64,000 nt of DNA, taken from NCBI GenBank assembly GCA_023265395.1, contig JAHFTX010000009.1, forward strand, positions 12,308 through 76,307, given 5' to 3'. Source of the DNA: Thermoplasmata archaeon. Its GTDB lineage: Archaea > Thermoplasmatota > DTKX01 > JAHFTX01. Below the pieces are notes generated by a model that was not told the origin of the DNA, ran no database searches, and saw nothing but the letters and a program-made list of their open reading frames with translations. Position numbers and translations under genes: made by a program. Below are positions 4,776-60,833 of this stretch, in pieces (the stretch's first letter is position 1; every line of letters begins with the position of its first letter).

Positions 4776-4802
4776 GGCTCAATCCGGGGGCCATCCCGCT
4801 CC

Positions 4803-4810
4803 CTTTAAGG
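4803..4810 (+). promoter_or_regulatory. TATA-like box CTTTAAGG upstream of the 4843 gene
   Basis: This is the only A/T-rich octamer in the 67-nt spacer. It is centred about 36 nt upstream of ATG 4843, implying a roughly 10-nt leader. Confidence 0.35.
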
Positions 4811-4842
4811 TCGGTCGCCCCCGACCAAGAGGCGAGGCAGCC

Positions 4843-9318: not shown

Positions 9319-9341
9319 TGGGCCGCAAGGCCCAAGGTCGG

Positions 9342-9349
9342 ATAAAAAG
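9342..9349 (-). promoter_or_regulatory. TATA-like box (minus strand CTTTTTAT) for leaderless purP
   Basis: A/T-rich octamer in GC-rich DNA, centred about 27 nt upstream of ATG 9318. Confidence 0.5.
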
Positions 9350-9361
9350 CGTGCTGCCGCC

Positions 9362-19377: not shown

Positions 19378-19487
19378 TCCCGCCTCCCGGATTTGAACCG
19401 GGGGCCTGCTGATGGCCACGGCTGGCCGGATCCGATCCGGTGTCTCCACTACAGTCAGCCGCTCTAGCCAGGCTGAGCTAAGGCGGG
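19378..19487 (-). tRNA. tRNA-Tyr: tRNA-Tyr (anticodon GUA) with a 35-nt intron at the canonical 37/38 position; no encoded CCA
   Basis: Folded by hand on the minus strand. Acceptor CCCGCCT/AGGCGGG with discriminator A. D arm GCTC-AGCCTGGCTA-GAGC. Anticodon stem GCTGA/TCAGC with loop CTGTAG + intron + A. T arm CCCGG-TTCAAAT-CCGGG. The C1:G72 pair is the archaeal/eukaryal tRNA-Tyr identity pair. Confidence 0.9.
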
Positions 19488-19512
19488 GCGACCGCCCAAC
19501 CCAGCATCCGCA

Positions 19513-19518
19513 CAAATA
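19513..19518 (-). promoter_or_regulatory. TATA-like element (minus strand TATTTG) upstream of tRNA-Tyr
   Basis: Centred about 28 nt upstream of the mature tRNA 5' end. Confidence 0.4.
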
Positions 19519-19549
19519 CCTTCGCCCTGGGGTGGAGCAGGTCGGGACT

Positions 19550-21580
19550 CTACGGTGCCTGGCCATCCTTCGCCGCGCGCCGTGCACGCAGCGTCTTGCG
19601 CACGCGCTGCACCACCAACAGGCTGACCGCTACGGCGATCAGGACCACCAGCAGCGGCAGCAGCAACACCGAGATCGGAGAGGTGGTCGTCGTCGGGCCC
19701 TGGGCGCTCGAGAAGGTGACGTTGTCGGAGAGCGAGTGGGAGCCACCGCCGACGGCGCGCACCGATACGACATGGGTGCCGCTTCGCAGATGCCGGGTAT
19801 CGACACGTACCGACCAGTTCCAGAAGGTCCCGTCGCCGCTGTCGTCGGTGGCGTTGCGCCACGGGCCGTCGTCGATGTGATACTGCACCCCCTCGACGCC
19901 GCGCAGCTGGCGGTCCCAGGAGGAGCCGTTGATCGTCACCAGGCCGCTGACGTTCCCCAGCAGGGCGTCGGAGGGTTGCAGCACGTAGGCCTGCAGCCCG
20001 ACGTCGAGGGTGTCGACCTCGGTCAGGTCACGGGCCATGACGGTGGCGTTGTAGGCATCGATGATGCCATACCCGACCTCGCGGTTCCACACCGGGTCGA
20101 GGTCGGGGTCGGTGGCGTTCCATCCTCGTCGCTCGGCGGTCAGCTTGAGGATCTCCTTGATCTGGTCATGGGTGAGGTTGCTGTTGGCCTGGAGCATCAG
20201 CGCCGCGACCCCGGCGACGTTGGGGCCGGCATAGCTGGTCCCGCTGCCGCGCGGACCGTAGGTGCTGCTGCTCCCATCGCCGAAGCGGTCGTAGTTGGCC
20301 TGCAGGATGTCGGTTCCGGGGGCTGTCAGGTCGGGGAGCAACTCGTCGTAGGGGTTGGCGTCGCCGTCGTCGGCACGAGGGCCGCGGCTGCTGTAGTCGG
20401 CGATGCCGTCGTCCCGACGGTCGACCGTGTTGCGGTCGTCGCTGCTGGCGGTGGTGATTCCCCGCTCGGTCGCGGAGATCGAGGCGATACCTTGGTTGTC
20501 CGGGCCGGCGTTGCCGGCGATGGTGACGGTGACGATGCCCGCCTCGACGGCAGCGTCCAGCGCGCGGCTGTAGGGGTCGGTCCCGTCGGAGCTGTCCCCA
20601 GCGCCGCCCCAGAAGCTGATGGTGATGATGTCGATGCCTTCCGCCCCAGGCGGTCCGTTGGTCCACTTCTGGTCCTTGTGGGAGATCGCCCAGTCGAAGG
20701 CCCGCAGGATGCTGTCGAAGATCTTGGCGTCGAGGACGCCTCCGACGGAGAAGCCCAGCGCGGTGCCGATGCGCACGTCGACCAGCCCGGCGCCAGGGGC
20801 ATTGCCGGCGTAGGTGCCCGCCGCGCCGCCGGTGCCAAGGGCGATGCCCGCGCAGGTGGTGCCATGACCCTGGGCGTCGTCGGGATCGTCGGAGCCGTCC
20901 TTGGGCCAGAGGATCGGCACCGTGGGCTTGGTCATGTCCGCGCCGCCGAGGAACTTGCCTGAGAAGCTCTCGTGGCCATCATCGACGCCCGTGTCGAGCA
21001 CGGCAAGGGCGACACCCTCACCATCATAGCCGAGCTCCTCCCAGACGGTGTGGGGCGAATACTCGGGACTGCCACGGACCTTGACGGCCGGATTGGCCAC
21101 GTCGCTCCCGGGCACGAGCGATGGCTTGGACTCGACGAAGACCACGTGCGGGAGCGCAGCGAGCGCTTCGATCCCTCCCAAGGGTACGCCACTGAGCGAG
21201 AGCAGCTGCAGGTAGGCGAAGTGGTCGAGAATCAGGATCCCCAGCTCCTCAAGGTTGGCAACGTCAGAACCGGTGGGCACCCGGTCGTAATCGAGGTAGA
21301 CCTCGGCGGTCGTGGCGGGGCCGTAGGTCCGCAGCCAGCCCTCCAGGCGGTCCTCGACATGGTCTCGGTCCGTGTCGCGGCTGGTGCGATCGTACCAGGG
21401 CACGCTGCTCGGTGCGCGTGCGTGCCAGTGGCCCGGTTCTACGTCGCCCAGCCAGGGCCGGGGCATCCGCAGATGCTGGGGGAAGGCCGGAGGCTGCAGC
21501 GCGCTCGAGAGCCCGGTCGTGAGCAGCAGCAGCACGACTGCCAGGGCCAGTGCGCCGCTGCGGATCGGCCCCGTCACCAT
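19550..21580 (-). CDS. Secreted subtilisin-like serine protease (peptidase S8, halolysin-like) with C-terminal TM anchor
   Basis: Signal peptide MVTGPIRSGALALAVVLLLLTTGLSSA. Catalytic motifs ALAVLDTGVDDGH (Asp), HGTTCAGIA (His) and GTSYAGPNVAGVAALM (Ser). C-terminal ISVLLLPLLVVLIAVAVSLLVV is followed by a basic tail. Start set at ATG 21580. Confidence 0.88.
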   Translation of the reverse strand: MVTGPIRSGALALAVVLLLLTTGLSSALQPPAFPQHLRMPRPWLGDVEPGHWHARAPSSVPWYDRTSRDTDRDHVEDRLEGWLRTYGPATTAEVYLDYDRVPTGSDVANLEELGILILDHFAYLQLLSLSGVPLGGIEALAALPHVVFVESKPSLVPGSDVANPAVKVRGSPEYSPHTVWEELGYDGEGVALAVLDTGVDDGHESFSGKFLGGADMTKPTVPILWPKDGSDDPDDAQGHGTTCAGIALGTGGAAGTYAGNAPGAGLVDVRIGTALGFSVGGVLDAKIFDSILRAFDWAISHKDQKWTNGPPGAEGIDIITISFWGGAGDSSDGTDPYSRALDAAVEAGIVTVTIAGNAGPDNQGIASISATERGITTASSDDRNTVDRRDDGIADYSSRGPRADDGDANPYDELLPDLTAPGTDILQANYDRFGDGSSSTYGPRGSGTSYAGPNVAGVAALMLQANSNLTHDQIKEILKLTAERRGWNATDPDLDPVWNREVGYGIIDAYNATVMARDLTEVDTLDVGLQAYVLQPSDALLGNVSGLVTINGSSWDRQLRGVEGVQYHIDDGPWRNATDDSGDGTFWNWSVRVDTRHLRSGTHVVSVRAVGGGSHSLSDNVTFSSAQGPTTTTSPISVLLLPLLVVLIAVAVSLLVVQRVRKTLRARRAAKDGQAP

Positions 21581-21600
21581 GGGCCTTGCACCCTCGCTTC

Positions 21601-21610
21601 GGGATTTGGG
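21601..21610 (-). promoter_or_regulatory. Weak TATA-like element (minus strand CCCAAATCCC) upstream of the S8 protease
   Basis: Centred about 26 nt upstream of ATG 21580. Confidence 0.3.
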
Positions 21611-21656
21611 GTTGTTGGTGCGCACGGGGACCGACCTCGGGCGATCCCCCACCAAT

Positions 21657-21663
21657 GTTTATG
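21657..21663 (+). promoter_or_regulatory. TATA-like box GTTTATG upstream of the CBS-domain gene
   Basis: Centred about 30 nt upstream of ATG 21690. This supports the short version of ORF 21372..22196. Confidence 0.45.
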
Positions 21664-21689
21664 CGCTCGTTGCCCATCTGCGACGCATC

Positions 21690-22196
21690 ATGGCGACGCC
21701 TGCGGGACGGACGCTCGACAAGGTCCGCGACGCCCACCGCTCCTTTGGTCGCGCCCCGGCGATCGTCCCCTCGGGAGCCACCATCAGACGGGCGGTCGAG
21801 GAATGCCTCCGGCATCCGGACACCGCTTCGGTCTACGTCGTCGACGCCAGGGGCACGCTCGTCGGTGTCGTGCGCCTGTGCGACCTGTTACGCACGGAGC
21901 CGGCCCGCTCCGTCACCAACCGCGGCGACGTCGCCTCCCTCGCCCGTTCCTGGAACAAGCACCTCTCGACCCAGCAGGTCGACGGTGCGATGCACCCGCC
22001 CACGTCGGTGCGCGAGGACGACCTCCTGATCGACGCCTGGGAGAAGATGGTCGCCTTGCAGCTGAGCGACCTGCCGGTGGTCGATCGCGACCAGCGGTTG
22101 GTCGGCGAGCTCAACGCGCCCGACCTGCTCAAGTTCCTCCTCGAGGACGTCCGCAGCGGCGCGAGCGGTGGCGACCTCATCCCCCCTGTACCCTGA
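21690..22196 (+). CDS. CBS-domain pair protein
   Basis: Two CBS-like units (IVPSGATIRRAVEECLRHPDTASVYVVDARGTLVGVVRLCDLL and SVREDDLLIDAWEKMVALQLSDLPVVDRDQRLVGELNAPDLL). The upstream part of the ORF overlaps the protease gene and was discarded. Confidence 0.65.
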   Translation: MATPAGRTLDKVRDAHRSFGRAPAIVPSGATIRRAVEECLRHPDTASVYVVDARGTLVGVVRLCDLLRTEPARSVTNRGDVASLARSWNKHLSTQQVDGAMHPPTSVREDDLLIDAWEKMVALQLSDLPVVDRDQRLVGELNAPDLLKFLLEDVRSGASGGDLIPPVP

Positions 22197-22235
22197 AGAA
22201 TCGGGGCCCAGAATAGGCCGAAGCATTACCGGCCT

Positions 22236-22264
22236 CGATAGGGGGAGACTGAGCCCCGATAGGG
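22236..22264 (+). repeat. Direct repeat CGATAGGG x2 (21-nt spacing) upstream of the FG-GAP gene; a related AATAGG lies at 22212-22217
   Basis: Copies at 22236-22243 and 22257-22264, read directly. Extended similarity is CCTCGATAGGGGG versus CCCCGATAGGGTG. Confidence 0.4.
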
Positions 22265-22279
22265 TGCGCGAACGCACCC
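22262..22279. other. Hairpin GGGTGCG-CGAA-CGCACCC (7-bp stem, tetraloop)
   Basis: Read directly. Lies 66 nt downstream of the CBS gene stop and 66 nt upstream of ATG 22345. Confidence 0.3.
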
Positions 22280-22344: not shown

Positions 22345-25300
22345 ATGGGCGGGAAGTCGAAACGTATATCGGCCGTCATCCCCAGCGGCCGCCGCCGGCT
22401 GGCCTCCGGTCCGGGTGAGACGTTGGTGAGCACGAACGGTCTCCTTGGGGCCCTGTTGGTGCTGCTTGCCCTGCTCCCGGTCCTGCCCGTGCCCGTTGGT
22501 GGCGTCGCCCCCATCGACGATGCACCCCATACCTGGTTGGGCAACGTCGGCATCTCGTTCCTGGGCGAGGGCGACAACGAGGAGAGTGGCCGTGGCGAGG
22601 CATTCCTTGGGGATGTCAATGGCGATGGCCGGGATGACTTCGCCATCACCAGCAACTTCGCCGACGAACCGGGGAATGGGGACGTGGGCAAGATCTACCT
22701 CTTCTTCGGACGGGTCCAGCCATGGGGAGCCAACCTGAGCCTCGCCAACTCTGACGCCTCATACTATGGCGAGGATCCTGACGACCGCGCCGGCCGTCGC
22801 GTGACTGGCCCCGGGGACCTCGACGGGGACGGGTTCGACGACTTCGTCGTCGCCGGGCCCGAGGTCGACTCCAATGGATCCAATTCAGGCGCCTGCTACC
22901 TCTTCTATGGTCGTAGCCAAGGGTGGATCCTCAACGGCCACCTCAACGCTGCCGACGCACGGATTATCGGCCAACCGGGGCATCGGTTCTGCAACGATGT
23001 CGCCGGGCCGGGTGACGTCAACGCCGATGGCTATCCCGATCTGTTGGTCGGGACCGACAGCACCGACCGCGCTTACCTGTTCTACGGCGGCCCGCAGCGC
23101 CTGTCGGGGACGGTCACGACCGCCAGCGCTGCTGCCACCTTCGTCGCCTCCAACGGTGACCGATTGGGCTGGGACGTCTCCTGGGTGGGCGACGTCAATG
23201 GCGACCAGATCGACGATCTGCTGATGGGGGCGCCCTATGCGGCCGATGGCGGCAACTGGGACGCCGGCAAGGCCTATCTGTACTTCGGCCGCCCCGAAGG
23301 CTGGAAGGCCTCGACCGGCGCTGGCGAGGCCGACGTCACCTTCCTCGGCCCCTCGGCGACGAGCCAGGCCGGCTACACGGTCGCTGGGCCTGGGGACGTC
23401 AACGGGGACGGGCTCGATGATGTGCTCGTGGGGGCGCCGAAGGATTCCCCCCTCGCCCTCGAGTCGGGGTCGGTCTACCTCTACCTGGGCAGACCCACGG
23501 CGGAGTGGCAACCGACACTCCCCGCCGCCCTCGCCGATACCAGCTTCATCGGGACTGCAGAGGACCACGAGCTTGGCGAGGCGATCCCCATCGGGAGCGA
23601 CGTCAACGGCGACGGCCTGAGCGACATGCTCCTGTGCGGCGCACCCAATGACACGCTCGACCAGCACGCCGGTGAGGCGTACCTCATCCTGGGCAGCCTC
23701 GTGGGTTGGACCTCGAACCAGCCGCCCCTTCCCGTCGCAGCGGCGAGCTACATCGGGGAGGCCTCCTACGATCGCGCATGCGACGAGGCCGGCGGCGGCG
23801 GGGACCTCGACGGCGATGGGCTCGATGACTTCCTCATCGGTGCACCCCAGAACGATCAGGCCGGCAACGGCATGGGCAAGGCGTACGGCCTGACACCCGC
23901 TCACAACGACCGGCCCAATGGGGTCCTTGGTGTGACCGTCTATGGTGATGTGGCACGGGAGCAGCCGATCGCCACCGCGGCGGTCGGCCAACGGGTCTTC
24001 GTGCAGGTCGATGGCCTCGACGCCTCACCGCTGAGCATCGACCGGTGCCAGGTCGAGATCCGATCGGATTCGCACCTGCGACACATCCGCATCGACCTGA
24101 CCGAGACGGCGCTCAACTCCGGTGCCTACGCTGGTGAGGTGCTGGTGACCAATCGCACCCATGAGCGCTTCGGCTGGATTGCGGCGGACCTGGGCGATAC
24201 GTTGACCCTCTCCTCGGTCGAGGCCCCGGCCAAGTCGATCGACCTGCCCATCCGCGGCATCGATCTGCCGGCGAACCTGACCGACCTGGTGGTGCTCGAA
24301 GATGCGACGCTCGACCTGCCCCTGGTCGCGGTCAACGGGACGGCGACTGGCTGGGACGTTCGCAGCGACGGAGGCTGGGTCACCTTCGACCCGTTGACCA
24401 TTCGCCTCCAAGGGACGCCCACCCACGCCGACGTGGGCTCCTACTGGCTGCAGGTCGAGACCGGCGATGCGTATGGCAACGTCGCCGAGCGCAACCTCAG
24501 CCTGCAGGTGCTCAACCGGCCCCCCCAGGTGCTCATCGCGCCCCCAAGCAGCGTCGACCAGGACGCAACCTACGCCGCCGACCTCGACAGCGACGATGAC
24601 CCTTACAGCGCGATCGTGTGGGCGCTCTCCCCTCCTGGCGCGTGGTTGAGCATCGACAACGACAGCGGGGCGCTCTTGGGCACCCCACGTGCCCCTGACG
24701 TCGGGCTCAACCACTTCAACGTCAGCATGGTCGACGACCTCGGCGGTGTGGGGTGGTTCAACCTCACCATCCTTGTCGGTGACCTCCCCGACGCACCGTC
24801 GGTGACGACGATGCAGCTGCCGCCAGCGTGGGAGGATTCGTTCTATGAGGTGACCCTCAACGGCAGCGACCCCGACATCGGCTCCCTCGCCCCCACCTGG
24901 CGCCTGCTGGATGCCCCAGCATGGCTCTCCCTCGATGGTACCCTTGGGCTCCTCCTCGGCACGCCGGAGAACGCCGACGTCGGCATCCGTACCATCACCA
25001 TCGAGGTCAGCGACGCTGAGGACCACCGGACCAACACCTCGTTTCCCCTGGAGGTACGCAACACCAACGATCCCCCGCTGGTGGTCAGCCAGCCACCGAC
25101 GGCCGCAGCGGTCGGCTCCCCCTTCCTCTATCAGGTGGAGGCGGTCGACGACGACATCGGTGAGGTGCTGCACTACGAGCTCGACACCTGGCCCTCGGGG
25201 ATGTCGATCGGGTCGACGACTGGCCTGTTGGAGTGGGTGCCCGCCGAGGGGCAGCGCGGGATGCAGCACGTGATCATCGCGATCGGGGATGGCAACGCCA

Positions 25301-27762
25301 CGGTGGTGCAGGACTTCTCCATCGTCGTCAACTCACCGCCGCGGTTCGAGAGCCTCCCACCGCCGATGGCCAAGGTCGGGGTCGACTATGTCTACCAACC
25401 GCTGGTGACCGATCCTGACGGCATCGCGGGTCTGCGCTACACCCTCATCCAAGCACCCGACGGGATGGCGGTCGCCACGACCACGGGACGGTTGGTGTGG
25501 ACCCCTCAGGGCCGCGACGTGGGATTGCACACGGTCAGCCTGCAGGTCGTCGACGCCTTCACGAGCGCTGAGCAACGCTTCGGCATCGAGGTGCTCTCGA
25601 GCAGTGCCTCCGATGCCCCCAGCGTCGAGCTGCTCGACCCCGTCGACGGCGTGGCGGTCTACACCACCCTCGTCCAGCTACGCTGGCACGCCACCGACCC
25701 CGACGGTGATCCGATCAGCGCCAGCGTCTTCCTCTCCAACGACAGCCTTGCGGTCGCGCTCCGAGAGCCCTCGACGCTGATCGGCAACGTCACGGGCCAG
25801 GTGTCGCAGCTGCGTGTCCCCACGCCCCTGGTGCCGGGGCAGCACTATTCGTGGGCGGTCAGTGTCTCCGATGGCCTCTGGCAGGTCCACGGCACCCAGA
25901 CCTTCGATTTCCTTGTCTCGCCGCGCGCGACGGTCAACGAGCCCCCGTTGGCAGTCGGTCCGGCGAACTGGGAGTTCGTCGTCGAGACCTCGGCCACCTT
26001 CTCCCTGCTGGCTTCCGACGTCGAAGGGGATACGTTGACCTTCTCCCTGCTCGAGGGCCCTGAAGGGGCGACGGTCAGCCGCAGTGGTGCCGTCAGCTGG
26101 ACCCCCGCGAAGAGCATGGTCGGCCAGCACCTCCTCCAATGGGTCGTCGACGACGGGTCCTCCCGCGCCGTCGGGGTCGTCCACCTGACGGTCCAGGCAT
26201 CCGGCATCGACGGAGGCAAGGACGACCACCGGGCAGGACCGGGGGTGCTCAGCGTCTTCACCAGCCCGCTTGGGCTCGCAGCCCTGGGTGTGCTCGGTGC
26301 GGTGGTGCTCCTGGCCCTGGTGGTCGCGCGCCGTCGCAAGGACCACAGCCCGACACCCGCGCCGCCGCCGGTTGACGAGGCCGCACCACCTTCCTCCGAT
26401 CTTGGACCACGGCTGGGGACCGAACCGGGGCCGACCCCAGCCCTCGCCAAGGGAGCCCGCGCTGCGGTCGATCCCTTCCACGTCGTCTCGGTGCTGCTGA
26501 TCCATGCCGATGGCCGGCTCATCACCCATCGGCAGGCTGCCGGAACGCCCGAAGGCGAGGAGGAGGAGGACGAGTTACCCGCAGACCTCGTCTCGGGCAT
26601 GCTCGTGGCGATCCAGACCTTCGTGCAAGAGAGCTTCAAGTCTGAAGCGGGGCTGCAGACCTTCGCCTTCGATCGGTTCAAGGTCGTGCTCCATGGCCAA
26701 GGTGAGGTGCTCGCGGCGGTGCTCGTCTCGGGCACGCCTCCGCCGCAGATGGCTGAGGAGCTCGAGCGCGTCGCCGTGGCCGTCAATGGCAACTATGGGG
26801 CGATGCTCGACCACTGGGATGGGGACCTCGAAGGTCTGCCGGGGATCGAGGGCCACCTCGAGCCGATCTTCGCCCTGGAGCGATCCCTGGTGCAGCGCAA
26901 GGTGGTCCGTCGGGTGCGCGTGCGCTCGGGGCTGGAGTTCTTCCAGGGGTACCTGCGGCTCAAGGTCGCCGTCGTCAACGATACGACCGTCCCGATCTCG
27001 GGCTGCGAACTCCTGCTCGACTTCGATCATGCCTACCTGCGACTCGACCACATCGAACCCGCCCTGGGGCGTTCGGGTGAAGCGGTCCTCGTGGGGACCG
27101 TCCCCGGCCGGGAGAAGCGCACGGTCGCCTATCTGCTCGACCCCGTCATCTGTCAGACCTCGACGCTGGGATGCACCCTCTCCTACGGCGACGTCGGGGG
27201 CACACGGCGGACCTTGGTGATGAAGCCAAAGCCCCTCGATGTCGTCTGCCCGATCTTCTACACCCCCAAGACGGTCAACCTCGCCATCCTGCGGCGCCTG
27301 CTGAGCCATGCCTCGGTGCGCGACCACCGTTCCTTCCGGCCGCCCTCGTCGATGACCCTCGACGCCCTCTACCAGCACATCCGTGACATCGTCGCAGGCT
27401 ATGACGTGCGGATGGTGCGCGAGCTTGCCGCGGAGGATGCACCGGTTCTTGCCTCCGACCAGCCGATGGGGAAGGTCGCGTGGTTCTATGGCAAGGTCCC
27501 GCAGGGCGGCGAGGAGATCGTCATCACGGTGGCAGTCAACGAGAGCGGTGGGACCGTCGAGCTGGGGGTCGCATGCCGCAACGTCGCCTCCTTGACGGGC
27601 CTGCTCGCCGACATCGCTCACCAAGTGGTCAAGTCCAAGCCCACGGTCCGTAGCACGCACCAACCGAACTCGGAGGACGTGGTCGCCCAGACCATGCACC
27701 TGCTCGAAGGCATCGACGAGGACCCGACGGCGCCCCAGGGGCCCATCGGTCCTGCTGATTGA
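22345..27762 (+). CDS. Integrin-alpha-like (FG-GAP repeats) plus cadherin-like/putative-Ig ectodomain, single TM, ~470-aa cytoplasmic module
   Basis: N-terminal hydrophobic LLGALLVLLALLPVLPV. At least seven FG-GAP/Ca-binding repeats (GDVNGDGRDDF, GDLDGDGFDDF, GDVNADGYPDL, GDVNGDQIDDL, GDVNGDGLDDV, SDVNGDGLSDM, GDLDGDGLDDF). Repeated dystroglycan-type units follow (GTPTHADVGSYWLQVE, GTPRAPDVGLNHFNVS, GTPENADVGIRTITIEV and others). TM LGLAALGVLGAVVLLALVVA lies at about nt 26266-26328, followed by RRRK and a long non-repetitive cytoplasmic region. Confidence 0.8.
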   Translation: MGGKSKRISAVIPSGRRRLASGPGETLVSTNGLLGALLVLLALLPVLPVPVGGVAPIDDAPHTWLGNVGISFLGEGDNEESGRGEAFLGDVNGDGRDDFAITSNFADEPGNGDVGKIYLFFGRVQPWGANLSLANSDASYYGEDPDDRAGRRVTGPGDLDGDGFDDFVVAGPEVDSNGSNSGACYLFYGRSQGWILNGHLNAADARIIGQPGHRFCNDVAGPGDVNADGYPDLLVGTDSTDRAYLFYGGPQRLSGTVTTASAAATFVASNGDRLGWDVSWVGDVNGDQIDDLLMGAPYAADGGNWDAGKAYLYFGRPEGWKASTGAGEADVTFLGPSATSQAGYTVAGPGDVNGDGLDDVLVGAPKDSPLALESGSVYLYLGRPTAEWQPTLPAALADTSFIGTAEDHELGEAIPIGSDVNGDGLSDMLLCGAPNDTLDQHAGEAYLILGSLVGWTSNQPPLPVAAASYIGEASYDRACDEAGGGGDLDGDGLDDFLIGAPQNDQAGNGMGKAYGLTPAHNDRPNGVLGVTVYGDVAREQPIATAAVGQRVFVQVDGLDASPLSIDRCQVEIRSDSHLRHIRIDLTETALNSGAYAGEVLVTNRTHERFGWIAADLGDTLTLSSVEAPAKSIDLPIRGIDLPANLTDLVVLEDATLDLPLVAVNGTATGWDVRSDGGWVTFDPLTIRLQGTPTHADVGSYWLQVETGDAYGNVAERNLSLQVLNRPPQVLIAPPSSVDQDATYAADLDSDDDPYSAIVWALSPPGAWLSIDNDSGALLGTPRAPDVGLNHFNVSMVDDLGGVGWFNLTILVGDLPDAPSVTTMQLPPAWEDSFYEVTLNGSDPDIGSLAPTWRLLDAPAWLSLDGTLGLLLGTPENADVGIRTITIEVSDAEDHRTNTSFPLEVRNTNDPPLVVSQPPTAAAVGSPFLYQVEAVDDDIGEVLHYELDTWPSGMSIGSTTGLLEWVPAEGQRGMQHVIIAIGDGNATVVQDFSIVVNSPPRFESLPPPMAKVGVDYVYQPLVTDPDGIAGLRYTLIQAPDGMAVATTTGRLVWTPQGRDVGLHTVSLQVVDAFTSAEQRFGIEVLSSSASDAPSVELLDPVDGVAVYTTLVQLRWHATDPDGDPISASVFLSNDSLAVALREPSTLIGNVTGQVSQLRVPTPLVPGQHYSWAVSVSDGLWQVHGTQTFDFLVSPRATVNEPPLAVGPANWEFVVETSATFSLLASDVEGDTLTFSLLEGPEGATVSRSGAVSWTPAKSMVGQHLLQWVVDDGSSRAVGVVHLTVQASGIDGGKDDHRAGPGVLSVFTSPLGLAALGVLGAVVLLALVVARRRKDHSPTPAPPPVDEAAPPSSDLGPRLGTEPGPTPALAKGARAAVDPFHVVSVLLIHADGRLITHRQAAGTPEGEEEEDELPADLVSGMLVAIQTFVQESFKSEAGLQTFAFDRFKVVLHGQGEVLAAVLVSGTPPPQMAEELERVAVAVNGNYGAMLDHWDGDLEGLPGIEGHLEPIFALERSLVQRKVVRRVRVRSGLEFFQGYLRLKVAVVNDTTVPISGCELLLDFDHAYLRLDHIEPALGRSGEAVLVGTVPGREKRTVAYLLDPVICQTSTLGCTLSYGDVGGTRRTLVMKPKPLDVVCPIFYTPKTVNLAILRRLLSHASVRDHRSFRPPSSMTLDALYQHIRDIVAGYDVRMVRELAAEDAPVLASDQPMGKVAWFYGKVPQGGEEIVITVAVNESGGTVELGVACRNVASLTGLLADIAHQVVKSKPTVRSTHQPNSEDVVAQTMHLLEGIDEDPTAPQGPIGPAD

Positions 27763-27803
27763 GTCTCGACTGCGGCCGCGACGAGCATGGGGTCGACCTG
27801 GTG

Positions 27804-27829
27804 TATAGAAAATATAGAAACTGTTAAAA
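27804..27829 (+). promoter_or_regulatory. A/T-rich island: tandem TATAGAAA x2 followed by TGTTAAAA (probable TATA box of the 27853 gene)
   Basis: TATAGAAA lies at 27804-27811 and 27813-27820. TGTTAAAA at 27822-27829 is centred about 27 nt upstream of ATG 27853. It is the most A/T-rich stretch I saw in the window. Confidence 0.5.
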
Positions 27830-27852
27830 CCTAGGCTGCTGATGGCCATGGC

Positions 27853-30800
27853 ATGACGCGTTCGTCCCCCTGCGCTCTCGTGGCGCTGCGCTCGGTGCCT
27901 GCGATGATGGTCGTGCTGCTGCTCCTGTTCCCCTCGGCAAGTTTGGCTGCCGCCCCCGAAGGCGACAGCGCTGAGGGAACGCTGCTTGGATCGGTCCGGC
28001 CGATCGCCACGGTCGAGAGCCTCCCCCTTGCGGCATCGTCGGTCACCGACGACCGCGGAGCGGCCATCTTGCGCGCGCCGTTGCCTGTCCTGGCAGCCTT
28101 GGAGGTCGAGCACCTCGAGTTGCAGGGGGGAACGCTCCCACAGGAGCGACTGGTGCACTCGGCGACCACTCAGGACGAACCTGCGCTCGAGGTCCATGTG
28201 GACGCACAAGGGACGCCGCTGGTCGGCATCAAGGGCAAGAAGGTGGGCGCCGCGGCGCTCCATCTCGAAGCGTCGACCTTCGCTCAGGCCACCGGGGGGA
28301 CCATCAGCGGTGAGCTCGAGGTCCCTGCGACCTTGCGCATCGACGCCGCGGTCGTGCAGGTGCTCCCCCCGCCGATAGACTCCCAGTGGGTCTATCCCGC
28401 AGCGCGTTGGCGCACGGACCTCACCCTCGTCTCCCCCGGGCCGCTCGCCGAGCAGCTGGTGGACCTGATCGTACCAATCGAGGAGGGCTGGGAAGTCCGA
28501 GAGGCGGGCTCAGGGCCGACCTCCCCTCCGCTGTCGCTGTGTGCAGGGATCGCCCTGACGTGGCATCCTGCCAGCGGCCCACAGCAGGAACTGCCCTTCG
28601 AGATGCTCGGCGTCGCGTCGACGCGCGAGGGCCGCTCGCTGCTGGTGCGAACGCTGTTGCCGCAGCGGAGCACGGATCACATCGAACTCTCCGTCTATCG
28701 GGGTAGCGTCCCGTTGCCGGGGATGCAGAGCGACTTCGGTGGCGGCGACTTCGTCCTGCGGCCCCGCATCGGGTTGGAGGCTTTTGCAGCGGCAGACACC
28801 TCCGCAGGAGTCGGCTCGGCGATCGGAGCGCCCCTGGACGTGGCGATCGCGCCTGACGGGTATGTGGCCGTGACGGATGCGGGGAGATCGCAAGTGCGGC
28901 TCTACGACTCCGAGCTGGTCCTTCGTCGAGTGATCGGCGCCGATGGTGGGAGCTCCTACCCGACCAGTTTCTCCAAGCCCCAGGGGATAGCCTTCGCCGC
29001 CAAGGGGGCGGCGATGGCCATCGCCGACACCGGCAATGGTCGGGTACAACTGATCGACCGCCAGGGCGAGCTGATCGGCATCCTCGATTCGACGGCGGGC
29101 CAGTCCGACGCGCTGAGTTTCCCAACCGACGTCACCATCGACGGGAACGGTCGCGTGCTGGCCTCCGACCCGCAGCGGGGAGCGGTGTTCCGGTTCGCTC
29201 CCACCTCCGGACCGGGGGAGCGGCTCCTCGAAGGGACCGACCTCGGCTGGCCCAGGGCGATCGCCGAACGCCAGGGGGACCTGTTCGTGCTCGACGAAGG
29301 TTCCGATTCGGTCTCGCGGTACGCTCTGGCAGGGGTCGGCGGCCCTGACCCCTTTGGCCCGCTGCACTTGGCCACGACGTTTGCGCTGGCTGTCGGTGAT
29401 GCGACCGCAGCACTCTCGAGCGGTGGGGAGGAGGGTGTGCTCTTGGCACAGCCTCAAGGCGGTGCCCCGCTGCGGCTGGACGCTCCGGTCTTGCGCCACC
29501 CCCGTGGCATGGCGTTCGATGACCTGGGGCGGCTGTGGGTCGCCGACAGCGGACGCGCGCAAGTGGTCCTCTTCCATCGGTTGACCATCTCCACCAGCCC
29601 GACGCTCGAGGAGCCCGTGCTCGAATCCGCCACGTTGCAGCTTGGGACGCTCGAGTTCCTCCTCTCCCCCTCTTCTACGGTGTCGAGCGAGGTCCCGATC
29701 CCTCCCACGGGGATCCTCCTGGATGCTGGGGCCCTCAGCTGGGAGTTGCGTTGGAGCGGCTCGACCTCCCCCGCCGGCATGAACCTGGTCGTGAGTGGCC
29801 CGTGGTTGCTGCCGCTAGGGAGTTGCACGGCGTGCGTCGATGTCGGAGTTGATGGGGAGAATGTCCTACAGATGAGCGTCGAGATCGACCCCGACCTGCC
29901 CCTCTCCCACCCACCCATCGCGCTGGCGATCGAGGGTCTTGCCTTGGGGGTCGTTGGGATCCACTGGCCAGCCGAGTTGCCTCTGCTGGCACAATCGCCG
30001 CTGCCCTGCGACTCACCCGTGAGAGTCCTGCGCCTGTTGCCACTGCCAAACCCGTGGCAGCCCAAGCAGACCCTCCCACTCGCTCTGACGATCGATGATG
30101 GGGGGAATAGCTCGAGCGCAGTTGTCGATGATCGGGGTATCCTCACCGTCGATTGCGATCCGACGGTGGGGATGACGCAACGTGCCCTGACTCTCCGACT
30201 GGTCCTCGCGCCGCTGCTGCCCACCGGTCCGCTCCCGGAGGCGGCCCTCCAGAGGTTGCTGTTGGGCTGGCCCACACCCGTGCCGCAGGTCTCGATCATC
30301 GCAGCCACCGAGGCAGAGGTCACTAGCCGTGGAGCACTGGTCGTACCGGCATCGGCGGTCGTCGAACCTGCCGAAGCCGCCGCCAACCTCCAATTGAGCC
30401 TCGAACCGAGCTTGCCCGACCTGGCGTGGGATGGCCAGAACGTCACCTGGCTCCATCCGCTGCCGGAGGTCGGGCAGCTCGAGCTCGTCGCCGTCGTAGG
30501 GGCGATCGAGGTCCGCCAGGCGTTACTGCTCCGCTGGGAGATCCCCCCATCCCGATGGGAGGCGACGGTAGAACCGATTGGTGAGGTCCAGGCCGGCAGT
30601 CAGCTCCGAGCCCGCATGCTCTTGCTCGAGGACGGGACCGTCGTCGATCGTCCGCTGCTGCTGCTCGATGGCCCAAAGGGGCTGCTGCTGCTCGAGGACG
30701 GGACCGTCCTCTGGAACATCCCTTGGGACGCTCCCCCTTTGGTGACGCTGACGGTCGACGCCGCGCTCGAGCAGCCCTTGCGGGCGACGATCGCCATCGA

Positions 30801-31719
30801 GCCGCTGCCGGTGCAGGTCGATCTGGCAGACGACCTCGCCAGCGGTCTGCTCCAAGGCGACATCCTAGGCTCGACGATCCACTGGAGCATCCCTCCGACG
30901 CTCATCAGCCAGGTCCCGCTGCCAGCGGTGCGGTTGCAGCTCGACGGGGGGGTATGGCGTTCTCCCGCGACCATGGGACAGTCTCACGGGCACGGGTCCG
31001 CGGTCGCTTCCGTCGGCACCGGCGCTCTCGAGCCAGGGTCGCATCGCGTCTTGTGGCGTGTCGACTTCGGCCCGCTGCGATTCGAACGGACCCACACCTT
31101 CGTGATCGGCACCGGTCCTGCGACGATCGAGCCCGTCGCCGCCTCTGTGACACTCCCGCTGACCTCGACGACGCTCGTCGTGGCGCTGAGCTTCGCCATC
31201 GCCCTGAGCGTGGCGGTGCGCTGGCGCGCCGCCCGCAAGGCCCCTTTCGTGGCCACCCCGTCGCCGACCGAGGCGCCGCCCCAGGCGCGGGACCCTCACC
31301 CCGGCGAGGGGGGCGACCTGCCCACCTCCGACGAGGAGGAAGGGCCATCGCCCGCCGTCGGGTCGGCGCCGCAGATGGTCACCTCGACGGTACCGACCGA
31401 ACCGATGCCGCTTCCCCCGCCGCCCCCGTGGTGGAAGGGTCCCCCGCTTCCGCACGTGACCGCCACCCAAGATGTACCGCTCCGCTGTGGGCTGTGCTTT
31501 GGGCTTTTCAAGCACGAGGTCGACCGCTGGGCGTGTCCCTGCGGGAGCCTGCTGCACCTGAGTTGCTCCCTGCGGGCAGGCCGCTGCCCCAGTTGCAAAC
31601 AGGCGCCACTGGGCCCACTCCCCACCAAGGGCGGCTCGGCGACGACCGGCCTGCCCTTCCTGCGGGCAAGCCCTCCCCCGCCGTTTGTTGCGGCCCCCTC
31701 GACGGAGGTGACGTCATGA
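27853..31719 (+). CDS. NHL-repeat beta-propeller surface protein, single TM, cytoplasmic Pro-rich linker and C4HC3 cross-brace-type zinc finger
   Basis: Signal peptide CALVALRSVPAMMVVLLLLFPSASLAAAPEG. NHL-like blades include LDVAIAPDGYVAVTDAGRSQVRLYD, PQGIAFAAKGAAMAIADTGNGRVQLID, PTDVTIDGNGRVLASDPQRGAVFRF and PRGMAFDDLGRLWVADSGRAQVVLF. TM TLVVALSFAIALSVAV lies at about nt 31147-31222. Then PLPPPPPWWKGPPLP, and C-x2-C-x12-C-x-C-x4-H-x2-C-x6-C-x2-C at nt 31486-31596. Confidence 0.8.
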   Translation: MTRSSPCALVALRSVPAMMVVLLLLFPSASLAAAPEGDSAEGTLLGSVRPIATVESLPLAASSVTDDRGAAILRAPLPVLAALEVEHLELQGGTLPQERLVHSATTQDEPALEVHVDAQGTPLVGIKGKKVGAAALHLEASTFAQATGGTISGELEVPATLRIDAAVVQVLPPPIDSQWVYPAARWRTDLTLVSPGPLAEQLVDLIVPIEEGWEVREAGSGPTSPPLSLCAGIALTWHPASGPQQELPFEMLGVASTREGRSLLVRTLLPQRSTDHIELSVYRGSVPLPGMQSDFGGGDFVLRPRIGLEAFAAADTSAGVGSAIGAPLDVAIAPDGYVAVTDAGRSQVRLYDSELVLRRVIGADGGSSYPTSFSKPQGIAFAAKGAAMAIADTGNGRVQLIDRQGELIGILDSTAGQSDALSFPTDVTIDGNGRVLASDPQRGAVFRFAPTSGPGERLLEGTDLGWPRAIAERQGDLFVLDEGSDSVSRYALAGVGGPDPFGPLHLATTFALAVGDATAALSSGGEEGVLLAQPQGGAPLRLDAPVLRHPRGMAFDDLGRLWVADSGRAQVVLFHRLTISTSPTLEEPVLESATLQLGTLEFLLSPSSTVSSEVPIPPTGILLDAGALSWELRWSGSTSPAGMNLVVSGPWLLPLGSCTACVDVGVDGENVLQMSVEIDPDLPLSHPPIALAIEGLALGVVGIHWPAELPLLAQSPLPCDSPVRVLRLLPLPNPWQPKQTLPLALTIDDGGNSSSAVVDDRGILTVDCDPTVGMTQRALTLRLVLAPLLPTGPLPEAALQRLLLGWPTPVPQVSIIAATEAEVTSRGALVVPASAVVEPAEAAANLQLSLEPSLPDLAWDGQNVTWLHPLPEVGQLELVAVVGAIEVRQALLLRWEIPPSRWEATVEPIGEVQAGSQLRARMLLLEDGTVVDRPLLLLDGPKGLLLLEDGTVLWNIPWDAPPLVTLTVDAALEQPLRATIAIEPLPVQVDLADDLASGLLQGDILGSTIHWSIPPTLISQVPLPAVRLQLDGGVWRSPATMGQSHGHGSAVASVGTGALEPGSHRVLWRVDFGPLRFERTHTFVIGTGPATIEPVAASVTLPLTSTTLVVALSFAIALSVAVRWRAARKAPFVATPSPTEAPPQARDPHPGEGGDLPTSDEEEGPSPAVGSAPQMVTSTVPTEPMPLPPPPPWWKGPPLPHVTATQDVPLRCGLCFGLFKHEVDRWACPCGSLLHLSCSLRAGRCPSCKQAPLGPLPTKGGSATTGLPFLRASPPPPFVAAPSTEVTS

Positions 31720-32051
31720 ATCCGCGCACGCCGCCAGCTGAAACCACAACTGATAAGTACCCTGCCCCAAGTCGCATCGCTGCGACCGACGGGGAGCGGA
31801 CCGGCGACATGGATGCCAAGGCAATCTTGATGGCCGTCGAGGAACGGCGCCGCTGGGAACAGCGCCGTACCGACCTGCTGGGCGAGCTGCGCGCGATGCC
31901 CTTCCGGGAGCGTCGCCGACGCACCGGTGACCTCCAGCGGATCGACCACATGCTCGCCTACTATGACGGGCTGGTGCGCGACATGAAGCGCAAGGTCCAA
32001 CGTGGGACCTCTGTCAACACGTTCCTTGACCGATTCGGAGCCTCCGAGTAG
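31716..32051 (+). CDS. Small (111 aa) predicted helical/coiled-coil protein, translationally coupled to the NHL/zinc-finger gene
   Basis: ATG 31716 overlaps stop TGA 31717-31719 (ATGA). It is the in-frame tail of track ORF 30723..32051, whose upstream part is a shadow of the NHL gene. The sequence is charged and heptad-like (AILMAVEERRRWEQRRTDLLGELRAM...LAYYDGLVRDMKRKVQ). An alternative start is ATG 31809 (MDAKAIL). Confidence 0.5.
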   Translation: MNPRTPPAETTTDKYPAPSRIAATDGERTGDMDAKAILMAVEERRRWEQRRTDLLGELRAMPFRERRRRTGDLQRIDHMLAYYDGLVRDMKRKVQRGTSVNTFLDRFGASE

Positions 32052-36775: not shown

Positions 36776-39700
36776 ATGGCTGACACCACCGCCGATGAAG
36801 AGGATTCCCCCCCCGCCGAGGAGGAGGGGCAAGGGGAGGTCCTCGACGGGGTTGGCGGCCAAGAGGACTCGGTGACCGAGGAGACGGATTCGCTCGCGGC
36901 CACCGACTCGTCGGACGAAGACCGGGACGAACCTCTCGATGACGAGGAGGAGGCTGAGGAGCCCACCGAACCGGGGGAGCCCGATGACGAGGAGGTGCCG
37001 CGGCCCACGAAAGCCAAGGCGACAAAGACCCGCTCCACGAGGACCACCTCCCGCTGGTGGGGCACCTCGACGCGCGGGGACGCTCCGTCGGACGAGAAGG
37101 CTCCACCAACCTGGGTGGGCCGTCTGGCCGTCCCGCTGCTGTTGCTGTCCTTCTTCTTGCTGGCGATGTTCATCCGTTCCTACTTCTACTGGCAGGTCGC
37201 CGTCCAACCCGTCGAGGACCTCGGCGTCAACTTCTTCTCCCTCTCTGGGAACGACCCCAACTACCACAAGCGGGTCATCGACTATGTCCAGCTCAACCAC
37301 CGGCAGCTGATCATCGACCCGCTGCTGAGCTACCCCAACGGCGCCGTCAACCCCAACCCGCCGCTGTTCGAGTGGAGCATCGTCCTGCTCGGCTACCTGC
37401 TGTCGCCCTTCCTTGGCAACGACGTTCAACTGGCCACGTGGTACGCCCACGAGTTCGGATCGGCGTTCTGGGCTTCAATGACGATCTTCCCCGTCTACGC
37501 CTACGCCAAGGACATGTTCGGGCGGCGACCCGCGATCCTCTCGGCGTTCTTCATCGCCGTCATGGCCGGCAACGTCGAGCGTACCCCTGTGGGCTTCTCC
37601 GACCACGATGCCTTCGTCGTGTTCTTCGTCGTCGTCGCCCTCTTCTTCCTGATGCGCGCCCTGCGCGGCCTACGGGAGGGCACCTACGTCGAGCGCTGGG
37701 GTGACTTCGCCAGCGTCACCCGCGGCGTCGACCGATTCTTGAAACACAACCGCAAGCCGCTGCTCAACGCCGTCATGTCGGGATTGGCGATCGCCACGGT
37801 CTTCCTGGCGTGGAAGGGCATCGCCTATCTCGAAGGGATCCTCCTCGTCTACCTGGTCTTCCATCTCCTGGTCAAGCGGGCACGCAAGGAGGAGAGCCTC
37901 GGGATCGGGGTGATCATCCTGACCACCCTGGCGGTGGCCCTGATCATCCCGATCCCCTACTACGCCTTCGCCCACCTGGCGGTGTGGTACGAGACCCCGC
38001 TGTTCATCTGGGCGTTCCTGGCGATCATCGTCCTGTTCCTCGTCCCCTCGCGCAACACCCCCTGGACCCTGTTGCTCGCCGAGATCGGTGGCACCGTCGC
38101 GTTGGTCTACGTCGTGGCCTCGCGGTTCTTCCCGCAGGTCTGGCAGACGCTGACGGAGCTGCAAGGGTACTTCTTGCGCACCAAGCTCTACACCACCATC
38201 GCCGAGGCCCAAGCGCCGGACTTCAGCCGACTAGTGTTCAGCTACGGCATCGCCACCTTCTTCTTGGCCCTCATCGGGCTCGTGCTCCTCGTGCTGCGGC
38301 TCCGCAAGGAGCGCTTCCGCAACGACCTGATCATCACGCTCATCTGGAGCGGGATGAGCTTCTACCTGGCGACCTCTGCCGTCCGGTTCGTCTACAACGG
38401 GACACCGGTGGTCGCGATCATGGCCGGGTGGGTCGCGTGGGAGGTCATCGAGCGCACCGGCTTCGACCGACTGAGCAAGTCGATGGCCATGACCACCGGT
38501 GCGTGGAACAAGCTGCGGCAGATCAACTTCTGGCACGTCTCGACGACCCTCTTCGTCGTGCTGATGTTGATCGTGCCCAACGTCTGGTACGGTGTCGACG
38601 CGGGCATCCCCTTCGAGACGAAGCAGAAGTACGACAAGGAGGTCTACGACGCCCTCCCCTCGTTCCTGCGCCCCGGCACCGACGTCTACGACCCCGACAC
38701 CGGCGGCTTGTGGTACCTTGGTGCCTTCGGCACCGCCTTCCCGAGCGACTATTGGCTCGATAGCCTGCATTGGTTGGCGCAGCAGGATACCGACCTGCCC
38801 ATCGAGGATCGGCCCGCGTTCGTCAGTTGGTGGGACTATGGTCACTGGTCCGTCCACTGGGGGGAACATCCCTCTGCCGCGGACAACTTCCAACACGGCT
38901 ACCAGTTCACCGGGCAGATGATCACAGCACCCAACGAATCGGTCTCCATCGCCCTGATGGCGGCGCGCATCGCCGAGGGCACCTACAAGAACAACCCGCA
39001 GGTCGAACCCTACCTGCGCGCCCAGCTGGGCGACGAGGTCACCAACGACCTGTTGGACCTCTACAAGAATCCCGGACCCTACGCCCAGGTCATCCTCGAT
39101 GACCCCGACACCTATGGCCGCTTCACGGAGAAGTACCAGGGCCCCGGCGGCACGACACTGCGCCATGACCTCGACCCCCTGAATGTCAAGTGGGCCTATG
39201 GGTCCCGCACCATCCTCAACGCCCTCGACGGCGATGAGGATCGCCTAGTGGACTTCCTGGCTGGTCTCGAGGGTATCACGGGCAAGCAGATGCGGTACTT
39301 CGCCGTCGACAGCCGCCTCTTCCCTTACTCGGCGTCCAACACCGGCATCTTCTACGCGCCGGTGCGCCTCTCCGACCAGGAGATCGACGACTTCCTGTTG
39401 ATTGAAGCGACGCTCAGCAACGGCCAGACGGTCAAGAGCTCCGAGATCAAGGGCGACCTCCAGCAACAGATCCAGCGGGGCGAGGTGAGCATCAACAGCT
39501 TCTCCTTGACCTACGAGCCACCCTTCCTCGACTCGCTCTTCTATCGCGCCTACGTCGGCTACAGCGGGGCGGACATCGGCCGCACCGACCCGACCTGCCT
39601 GCCGGCGATGCGGGTCTCCCAGGTGAAGGGTGGTCAGAACGCCTGCACCCAGCTGCTCCCCCTGCAAGGATGGGGACTTGAGCACTGGAAACTGGTCTAT

Positions 39701-59245: not shown

Positions 59246-59300
59246 GGAGGGAGTGGGAGCCGCAACCAGCCCCAAGAAGCCTTCGCCACGACGGCGTGCC

Positions 59301-60536: not shown

Positions 60537-60825
60537 TCAGTACTCCATGACATCTGGGGCGTCAGCGAGCGGGCGCAGGGCGCACCGCTGCGGGCACGGT
60601 GCCACTCAGGCACTGGCGGGGCGGACGGCCCAGGGGCGACTGCCACAGGAGGCAGACCTGACACAGACCGCGCGTGCCATCAGGTGGGGCAGGGACCACC
60701 CCTTGATAAGCCTTGGGGGAGCCGCACGACGGCCAGAGGTCGTGGGGGCAGGAGCGGCACCATGCTACGTGTTAGCACGGGAAAACGCCTTCCTTCCGGT
60801 CGGGCCCGCTCATCTGTACGGCAAA

Positions 60826-60833
60826 GCTTTATG
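60826..60833 (+). promoter_or_regulatory. TATA-like box GCTTTATG (within the palindromic AAAGCTTT) upstream of the second S8 protease
   Basis: It is the strongest A/T-rich element in the 330-nt spacer (a weaker GCTTATCA-like one lies on the minus strand at 60701-60712). It is centred about 37 nt upstream of in-frame GTG 60867. ATG 60831 lies inside the box, so it is an unlikely start. Confidence 0.45.

Follow-up and report, generated by a model that had tools for sequence, protein, structure and literature searches.

A very large, unannotated family of Thermoplasmata surface proteins with a predicted longin and adaptin-appendage-like cytoplasmic module

Three co-oriented genes lie between positions 22345 and 32051 of a 64-kb stretch of chromosomal DNA from a Thermoplasmata archaeon (contig JAHFTX010000009.1), referred to here in its entirety as the window. 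The first two encode giant type-I surface proteins and the third a small soluble one, and the locus raises the question of what the cytoplasmic side of such proteins is for and whether the three genes act together. An earlier note, made from the letters alone, had described them as one candidate module composed of two outside-in signalling receptors and a coupled helical protein. The analysis presented here leads to another reading, to which we assign, as a whole, a probability of roughly one half: the tail of gene 1 would be the built-in adaptor of a large protein family, with a machinery of the ESCRT (endosomal sorting complex required for transport) type as the foremost candidate partner, and genes 2 and 3 form a separate pair. 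All sequence-level statements of the earlier note held, including the limits of the three open reading frames (ORFs; 22345–27762, 27853–31719 and 31716–32051); comparative evidence supports neither a module of three genes nor a function as signalling receptors. The features of gene 1 are as follows (aa, amino acids; TM, transmembrane; Ig, immunoglobulin; AF2, AlphaFold2; pLDDT, predicted local distance difference test; TBP, TATA-binding protein; HMM, hidden Markov model).

22345–27762, + strand: gene 1, a 1805-aa type-I surface protein with a predicted cytoplasmic longin plus adaptin-appendage-like module (ORF and translation, Pfam, TM scan; likewise called as a gene on the 68.5-kb ENA metagenome contig that contains it).
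22522–23919, + strand: seven FG-GAP repeats of an integrin-alpha-type β-propeller with DxNxDGxxD calcium-loop motifs (PF01839, E 2.7e-34, seven stretches; motifs read in the translation).
24262–26199, + strand: array of He_PIG, Big_9 and cadherin-like Ig domains (PF05345 (He_PIG), E 2.1e-42, six stretches).
26254–26328, + strand: TM helix, aa 1304–1328, followed by RRRK and a proline-rich linker of about 47 aa (hydropathy scan).
26470–26901, + strand: tail domain 1, aa 1376–1519, predicted longin-type fold (ββ-α-βββ-α-α) with invariant DGR and WDG motifs (AF2, Foldseek, family conservation).
26914–27240, + strand: tail domain 2, aa 1524–1632, predicted Ig-like β-sandwich of the GAE/appendage type (AF2 pLDDT 80–92; Foldseek matches to AP2 alpha and beta2 appendages, GGA GAE and TRAP-beta).
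27280–27639, + strand: tail domain 3, aa 1646–1765, predicted TBP-like α/β platform (α-β-α-ββββ-α; AF2 model, Foldseek, HMM homology).
27676–27714, + strand: conserved, putatively amphipathic C-terminal helix, aa 1778–1790 (column statistics over 144 family members; low-confidence helix in the AF2 model).

The 477-aa cytoplasmic tail of gene 1 gave no match to any Pfam family, even at an expectation value (E) of ≤10, and hence none to a curated longin or roadblock family; a sequence-profile search of the Protein Data Bank (PDB) was equally negative. Its structure was modelled with AF2 from an alignment of the tail and six homologues. The resulting model comprises three domains (mean pLDDT 73.5; predicted template modelling score, pTM, 0.39), in which residues 1–144 follow a ββ-α-βββ-α-α order, residues 149–257 form a β-sandwich with pLDDT values of 80–92, and residues 271–390 adopt an α-β-α-ββββ-α arrangement. 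When the whole tail was compared with the PDB by Foldseek, the best match was the AP2 alpha-adaptin appendage (E 2.6e-8), with 253 aligned columns on the 238-residue ear. The appendages of COPI gamma and beta and of AP2 beta2 came next, the best structural matches spanning E 2.6e-8 to 1e-6, and AP mu subunits, BBSome subunits combining a GAE domain with a platform, Fuzzy-Inturned and Mon1-Ccz1 followed further down the list.

Domain 1 was also modelled alone from an alignment of 46 sequences, which yielded a pLDDT of 88.7, a pTM of 0.82 and the strand and helix order of a longin domain. Foldseek returned exclusively proteins of the longin/roadblock superfold for this model, with template modelling scores (TM-scores) of 0.5–0.7; among them were AP sigma (E 4.8e-5), AP mu, zeta-COP and Sec22b (TM-score 0.70, root-mean-square deviation 4.0), as well as Mon1-Ccz1, TRAPP Bet5/Trs23, MglB and LAMTOR. 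Domain 1 therefore shows both hallmarks of a longin domain, namely the ββ-α-βββ-α(-α) order and structural similarity to longin proteins, and in the model of the whole tail an Ig-like sandwich is directly followed by a TBP-like platform, as is characteristic of the appendage family. With high confidence, we consider the gene 1 tail to consist, as modelled, of a longin domain and an adaptin-appendage-like region (Ig-like sandwich plus TBP-like platform). This agrees with the previous proposal of a structured, eukaryote-like tail of about 470 aa that begins with a longin/roadblock-type domain; its remainder had been called simply β-rich, which is correct but is more precisely described as an appendage-like sandwich and platform.

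Could this fold have been over-read, the tail being made of ordinary prokaryotic Ig and generic α/β domains and the Foldseek matches merely reflecting common folds in a model of medium confidence? The pTM of 0.39, the TM-scores of 0.2–0.35 to appendages, the sequence identities of 7–15% and the lack of Pfam and PDB sequence matches would all fit such a view. Against it, the top 50 matches of the whole tail were mostly appendage, GAE-plus-platform and longin proteins rather than generic Ig domains, the best alignment spanned the whole ear, and the high-confidence model of domain 1 matched longin/roadblock proteins only. Further, the low whole-model TM-scores are explained by the uncertain inter-domain geometry that the pTM value expresses. 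We thus regard an over-read fold as highly improbable. Structure prediction followed by Foldseek had also been proposed in the earlier note as a check of its claim, and for the gene 1 tail neither disorder nor ordinary prokaryotic folds came out of it.

The two-subdomain architecture of the predicted appendage region is that of the AP-2 alpha and beta2 ears, the COPI gamma and beta ears and the BBSome GAE-plus-platform subunits. Eukaryotic ears are attached through a hinge to a HEAT-repeat trunk and bear pockets for peptide motifs (FxDxF, DPF/W and WxxF). The tail of gene 1, 8–15% identical to them in sequence, has no HEAT/solenoid trunk or hinge, its appendage-like region being preceded by a TM helix and a longin domain; moreover, the eukaryotic ear belongs to a soluble adaptor, whereas the gene 1 module sits on what would be the cargo. 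Domain 1, for its part, shares with longin and roadblock proteins the order of its secondary structure elements and the TM-scores given above, and differs from those families in lacking any Pfam profile match and in possessing its own invariant DGR and WDG motifs.

A search of the available proteins with a profile of the module recovered 6151 representative clusters at E≤1e-3, 3890 at E≤1e-10 and 451 at E≤1e-30. A word-index homologue search with the gene 1 tail had found just six relatives, a strong underestimate in comparison with the exhaustive profile search. Architectures were counted in the 144 best full-module representatives. A TM helix was located at most 200 aa upstream of the module in 117 of these (median gap 42 aa), the ectodomain exceeded 300 aa in 96 and 1000 aa in 59, and the module was nearly always C-terminal, with a median of nine residues after it. 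Most carriers were proteins of 1000–4900 aa with a TM helix ahead of the module, and the entire gene 1 architecture was common to several clusters (e.g., P0077, with 36% identity over 1793 aa). Among GTDB species genomes, the full module was present in metagenome-assembled genomes of the Thermoplasmata type only, at three to five paralogues per genome that were often arranged in tandem (loci L011, L013 and L022).

These data place gene 1 in a very large family that has no annotation and is known so far mainly from uncultured Thermoplasmata; its members combine a highly variable adhesin-type ectodomain, a single TM helix, a linker of about 40 aa and, on the cytoplasmic side, a conserved module of some 420 aa. 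The parts of that module, as predicted from the models and from conservation, are the longin-fold domain, the Ig-like β-sandwich, the TBP-like platform and a short conserved C-terminal helix. The latter follows a variable linker and conforms to the motif D-x2-φ-[RK]-x2-φ-x4-L-L-[LI]-[DE]-[KR]-x2-E-x-E, in which the central leucine was found in 100 of 115 sequences; from its sequence, the helix looks like a docking peptide. A by-eye comparison with the consensus of the MIT-interacting motif MIM1 was made, but the spacing does not fit, and no such motif is claimed.

Soluble versions of the module were also found, which carry an N-terminal helical domain instead of a membrane anchor (L001, 97–8402; L003, 2–8400). 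A Pfam search of these helical domains, in which Vps28-C or MIT were sought, gave nothing significant. In both loci the genes of the soluble module proteins have as neighbours genes for giant PKD/CARDB surface proteins and for small proteins with a single TM helix, a split arrangement that complements the fusion in the window. In L003, an 809-aa PKD ORF and an overlapping 133-aa TM ORF may be a single gene broken by a frameshift.

The ectodomain of gene 1 corresponds to the FG-GAP and cadherin-like architecture with a single TM helix that had been read from the sequence before. At its N-terminus the protein is basic, with a hydrophobic segment following at aa 26–57, and its translation contains seven D-x-[ND]-x-D-[GQ]-x-x-D loops, so that both the seven repeats and the calcium-binding loops of an FG-GAP propeller are present. 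Residues 1198–1283 matched PF17963 and PF17892 (Big_9 and Cadherin_5). A seven-repeat FG-GAP propeller with calcium loops, Ig-like domains, one TM helix and a cytoplasmic tail are likewise the components of integrin alpha; in integrins, however, the tail is short and unstructured and the partners are a beta subunit, talin and kindlin, whereas no beta-like partner is evident for gene 1. Propellers of the FG-GAP type occur widely in surface proteins of prokaryotes.

The nearest relatives of the appendage-like region were found outside Thermoplasmata. Methanolobus and Methanoperedens encode homologues of domains 2–3 alone, which match the module from about position 143 on; a tblastn comparison with the Methanolobus homologue gave E 3e-36, and the module HMM matched a Vps4-adjacent protein of Methanolobus sp. 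ZRKC2 at E 1.9e-67 over positions 143–409. The gene for the ZRKC2 protein, which bears a C-terminal Zn-ribbon, lies immediately after those for Snf7 and a Vps4-like AAA ATPase, and the same neighbourhood encodes an SPFH/Zn-ribbon protein and a second, weaker appendage paralogue. Adjacency to Vps4 was also observed in Methanoperedens loci. In one locus of Candidatus Methanoperedens (L031, 447–12586), five appendage-domain genes occupy about 12 kb on one strand, four of them adjacent in tandem, with the gene of a Vps4-like ATPase between; this array is a local expansion of the Meth_adaptin component described next.

Makarova et al. (2024, mBio, PMC10936438) described such proteins as the Meth_adaptin system, with an HHpred probability of 98% to the AP-2 beta and COPI beta appendages, and reported one member that is fused via a TM linker to a GOLD domain. 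The matches given above show, at the level of sequence, that the sandwich and platform of gene 1 are homologous to these ESCRT-linked appendage proteins of Methanosarcinales (arCOG15284, "Meth_adaptin"). Gene 1 and Meth_adaptin (PMC10936438) thus share the order of an Ig-like sandwich and, after it, a TBP-like platform, and in each case there is a member in which this region is linked through a TM segment to an extracytoplasmic domain. They differ in that the Methanolobus and Methanoperedens homologues showed no detectable longin match and occur with Zn-ribbons and in Snf7/Vps4/SPFH operons, while in gene 1 a longin domain precedes the appendage-like region, the two form the C-terminal part of a protein with a 1300-aa ectodomain, and no ESCRT gene is nearby.

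Combinations of longin and appendage domains have been described in archaeal ESCRT contexts of Asgard, where a role as cargo adaptor, analogous to ESCRT-0, was proposed (PMC10936438). As in gene 1, both domains are found there in one polypeptide; gene 1 differs from the Asgard proteins by its membrane-anchored giant ectodomain, by its euryarchaeal (Thermoplasmata) lineage and by the fact that Vps28-C was not detected when its tail was searched against Pfam. The earlier statement that no archaeal system of this kind had been described therefore holds in part: appendage regions and Asgard longin/appendage combinations are on record (PMC10936438), whereas our literature search found no description of a TM-anchored longin-plus-appendage family. 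Gene 1 is accordingly a new architectural variant, part of a large and apparently undescribed Thermoplasmata expansion of the known archaeal adaptin-appendage kind.

Since one module is carried by very many unrelated ectodomains and its nearest relatives are the proposed cargo adaptors of ESCRT operons, the tail of gene 1 is most likely a built-in adaptor. In such a mechanism, the longin domain would serve for dimerisation or partner docking and the appendage region would act as a protein-interaction hub, so that surface proteins of many kinds could all engage a common cytoplasmic machinery whose genes lie elsewhere in the genome. A membrane-remodelling and sorting apparatus of the ESCRT-III/Vps4 type would be the foremost candidate, and the outcome might be sorting into vesicles or positioning in the membrane. 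Coupling of the module to ESCRT, taken by itself, is put forward tentatively, and we judge it on the unlikely side. We know of no SNARE, GTPase or coat partner of the module family.

Several observations weigh against the built-in adaptor as proposed. The fold assignment comes from predicted structures whose whole-model TM-scores to appendages are low (0.2–0.35), and sequence profiles from neither Pfam nor the PDB match the tail. The ESCRT system of Thermoplasmata has been described as reduced and devoid of sorting components, and the published list of arCOG15284 has no Thermoplasmata members (PMC10936438). No gene for Vps4, ESCRT-III, SPFH or a small GTPase was found in the 64-kb window or beside the module genes in 24 Thermoplasmata loci, i.e., the genomic linkage to Vps4/ESCRT-III seen in Methanosarcinales is absent from them; Vps4-like matches near Thermoplasmata module genes were due to PAN, as recognised by its proteasomal OB domain. 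Lastly, the role suggested below for gene 3 is conjectural.

Alternatively, the function of the module might be purely structural: it would di- or oligomerise under the membrane and hold the giant proteins of the glycocalyx, in an archaeon that lacks a wall, on a cytoplasmic scaffold or against one another, and would take no part in sorting or signalling. One conserved module on very many ectodomains, several tandem paralogues per genome and the absence of a conserved enzymatic or regulatory neighbour are all compatible with an anchor, and longin/roadblock folds are classic dimerisation units. However, the closest sequence relatives of domains 2–3 are tied genomically to ESCRT-III/Vps4 and not to cytoskeletal genes, and the module also occurs in soluble versions. 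An anchor is therefore an unlikely explanation, albeit one that retains some weight beside the built-in adaptor.

Another possibility is suggested by the structural matches of domain 1 to Mon1-Ccz1, TRAPP, MglB and LAMTOR, which are all GTPase regulators: the longin/roadblock domain could be a platform for a guanine nucleotide exchange factor or GTPase-activating protein activity on a Ras/Arf/MglA-like GTPase, such that an outside ligand changes the state of the GTPase inside. Regulation of GTPases was also suggested for the Asgard longin domains by Makarova et al. (PMC10936438). A gene for a Ras-family GTPase (PF00071; L040, 1197–1745) was located 8 kb upstream of the closest relative of gene 1, but five genes lie between the two, namely a 1411-aa gene without a Pfam match and those for an HTH (helix-turn-helix) regulator, FtsZ, a CARDB protein and FtsJ. 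This GTPase was the only one recovered: a small-GTPase search over all related loci matched nothing beyond the query itself, and none was found in the window. Moreover, the longin domains of sigma- and mu-adaptins and of Sec22b are not GTPase regulators. In view of this, we consider a GTPase-regulating device rather improbable.

The remaining question is whether genes 2 and 3 belong with gene 1. Their features, and the element that precedes them, are listed below.

27804–27820, + strand: tandem TATAGAAA repeat that may serve gene 2 as an archaeal TATA element, some 40 nt ahead of the ATG (sequence read; putative function).
27853–31719, + strand: gene 2, a 1288-aa lineage-restricted type-I surface protein (ORF, Pfam, TM scan).
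31486–31596, + strand: cytoplasmic C4HC3 zinc-finger motif of gene 2, aa 1212–1248 (regular expression and cysteine positions).
31716–32051, + strand: gene 3, a basic soluble protein of 111 aa whose translation is coupled to that of gene 2 (ATGA overlap).

Gene 2 has a signal-peptide-like N-terminus, an NHL propeller at about aa 320–600 (E 1.6e-13), a TM helix at aa 1101–1123 and a tail in which 34 of 165 residues (21%) are proline; the propeller, the TM helix and the proline richness had been read before. Homologues retrieved with the full-length protein matched the NHL part only, covering 10–29% of the protein, and the tail had no match among 5.8 billion proteins. The cytoplasmic motif, C-x2-C-x12-C-x-C-x4-H-x2-C-x6-C-x2-C, comprises seven of the 13 cysteines of the protein and has the eight ligands and the C4HC3 spacing of RING-CH/PHD and Prok-RING_1 fingers. 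The C4HC3 pattern claimed in the earlier note is hence present, but its assignment to the RING/PHD type did not reach family thresholds: Prok-RING_1 (PF14446) scored 15.1 bits against a cut-off of 29.1, and zf-RING_2 13.6 against 27.3. The sequence matches in the PDB were weak and all RING (Slx1, Arkadia, RNF165 and Pirh2), with E values of 0.04–0.5 (best 0.042), none of them significant. The motif thus differs from RING fingers in scores that lie far below cut-off and in a last loop of merely six residues. A regular-expression search for other C4HC3 tails across all loci found just gene 2 and one unrelated zinc-ribbon protein, and no genes for ubiquitin-like, E1, E2 or JAB proteins were seen in the window.

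Gene 3 overlaps gene 2 by ATGA, as had been reported. A contig of about 1 kb from JGI, representing one close relative, encodes a protein 82% identical to that of gene 3 and keeps the ATGA overlap with a gene-2-like C-terminus as well as a convergent pheT. The two gene 3 sequences differ by 36 synonymous and 20 non-synonymous codons, and the differences at codon positions 1, 2 and 3 number 15, 12 and 43, respectively, a pattern that marks gene 3 as a real gene under purifying selection. Searches of the PDB and Pfam with gene 3 gave noise only (FXR_C1, PSK_trans_fac and UTP14). The gene 3 protein would probably bind the tail of gene 2. A defence system is unlikely, given that NCBIfam and PADLOC searches with all three proteins returned nothing relevant.

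The TATAGAAA repeat stretch lies in the 90-bp spacer between genes 1 and 2 and has a GC content of 29% compared to 68% for the genome, in agreement with the A/T-rich island noticed before. The region upstream of gene 1, in contrast, is GC-rich and without a TATA-like island; a motif, CGATAGGG, is repeated there at 22236–22265.

That the three genes might nevertheless be one module of two outside-in signalling receptors and a coupled helical adaptor is suggested by their adjacency and common orientation, by the structured cytoplasmic element that both large proteins have behind a single TM helix, and by the conservation of the translational coupling between genes 2 and 3 in a close relative. 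Conservation of the neighbourhood, which the earlier note had named as a test, was not observed; just the end of gene 2, gene 3 and pheT recur together, in the one close relative represented by the 1-kb contig. In phmmer searches of 39 related loci, neither part of gene 2 (ectodomain or tail) nor gene 3 had a match, and homologues of both genes were also missing beside the closest full-length relative of gene 1 (L040), which is flanked by FtsZ, CARDB-protein and FtsJ genes on one side and by A-ATPase genes on the other and shares gene 1 alone with the window. Further, all-against-all clustering of ORFs from 28 loci (the window and 27 others) revealed no conserved neighbour, as only module genes or paralogues and their shadow ORFs clustered. 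Gene 2 has no orthologues elsewhere and is separated from gene 1 by its own TATA-like island. Genes for giant secreted or TM proteins make up about 49% of the window, and the adjacency of two of them is therefore unremarkable in itself. A single three-gene module is accordingly very unlikely. On this comparative sequence evidence, genes 1–3 are not a conserved three-gene system but lie side by side in a region crowded with genes for giant surface proteins, and genes 2 and 3 are a coupled, lineage-restricted pair that is independent of gene 1.

The window as a whole has a GC content of about 68% and is DNA of an archaeal chromosome: it also encodes AglB/STT3 oligosaccharyltransferase, an archaeal-type PheRS beta subunit, ThrRS with the archaea-specific editing domain, aRF1, Cdc6/Orc1, CDP-archaeol synthase, geranylgeranyl reductase and PurP-like enzymes. 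The AglB/STT3 gene (36776–44212, + strand) specifies a protein of 2478 aa in which the enzyme is fused to many CarboxypepD_reg and NPCBM_assoc β-sandwich domains and a C-terminal TM helix. Two paralogous DUF1246/DUF1297 genes of the PurP-type ATP-grasp class are located at 8236–9456 and 51203–52366, both on the − strand. The density of giant genes is increased by a 1403-aa tetratricopeptide-repeat protein (55304–59515, − strand) and by large S8 subtilases at 19550–21655 (− strand) and 60537–64000 (+ strand), the latter running off the end of the window. In the stretch 19412–22216, just ahead of gene 1, the real genes are the S8 peptidase gene on the − strand and that of a CBS protein.

A further giant protein of the window also places defined domains behind its membrane helix. 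The gene at 4762–8226 (+ strand) encodes 1154 aa with a signal anchor, an Ig-like ectodomain and a TM helix near aa 978–997, on the cytoplasmic side of which an HVO_0163-type HTH and a MarR-type winged helix follow; with this combination, the product looks like a membrane-tethered transcription regulator. Its gene overlaps the end of another (9–4775, + strand) that encodes a 1588-aa PQQ-propeller/PKD TM protein.

Eukaryotic vesicle coats have longin domains and adaptin ears among their core components; as for archaea, most discussion of these domains has concerned Asgard and a small number of ESCRT operons in methanogens and haloarchaea. The models predict that hundreds of distinct giant surface proteins of Thermoplasmata carry a longin domain and an ear as a fusion after the TM helix. 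This provides a structural identity for a very large unannotated family of thousands of representative clusters with no Pfam model, and extends the archaeal adaptin-appendage repertoire to a lineage whose ESCRT system has been described as reduced. It also represents a natural fusion, or "Rosetta stone", that links surface adhesins to appendage-type adaptors, by virtue of which the question of what archaeal appendage domains bind becomes experimentally approachable with a soluble construct of 430 aa.

In its boldest form, which is speculative and which we consider unlikely, the proposal would be that uncultured Thermoplasmata run an extensive cargo-embedded proto-adaptor system, in which dozens of giant adhesins per lineage use their longin domain and ear to recruit ESCRT-type or other remodelling machinery to sites of external contact, and in which gene 2 would be a membrane-anchored RING-like E3 with gene 3 as its partner. 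If true, this would mean that adaptor-mediated sorting or outside-in coupling with eukaryote-type domains had already become elaborate in Euryarchaeota, outside Asgard.

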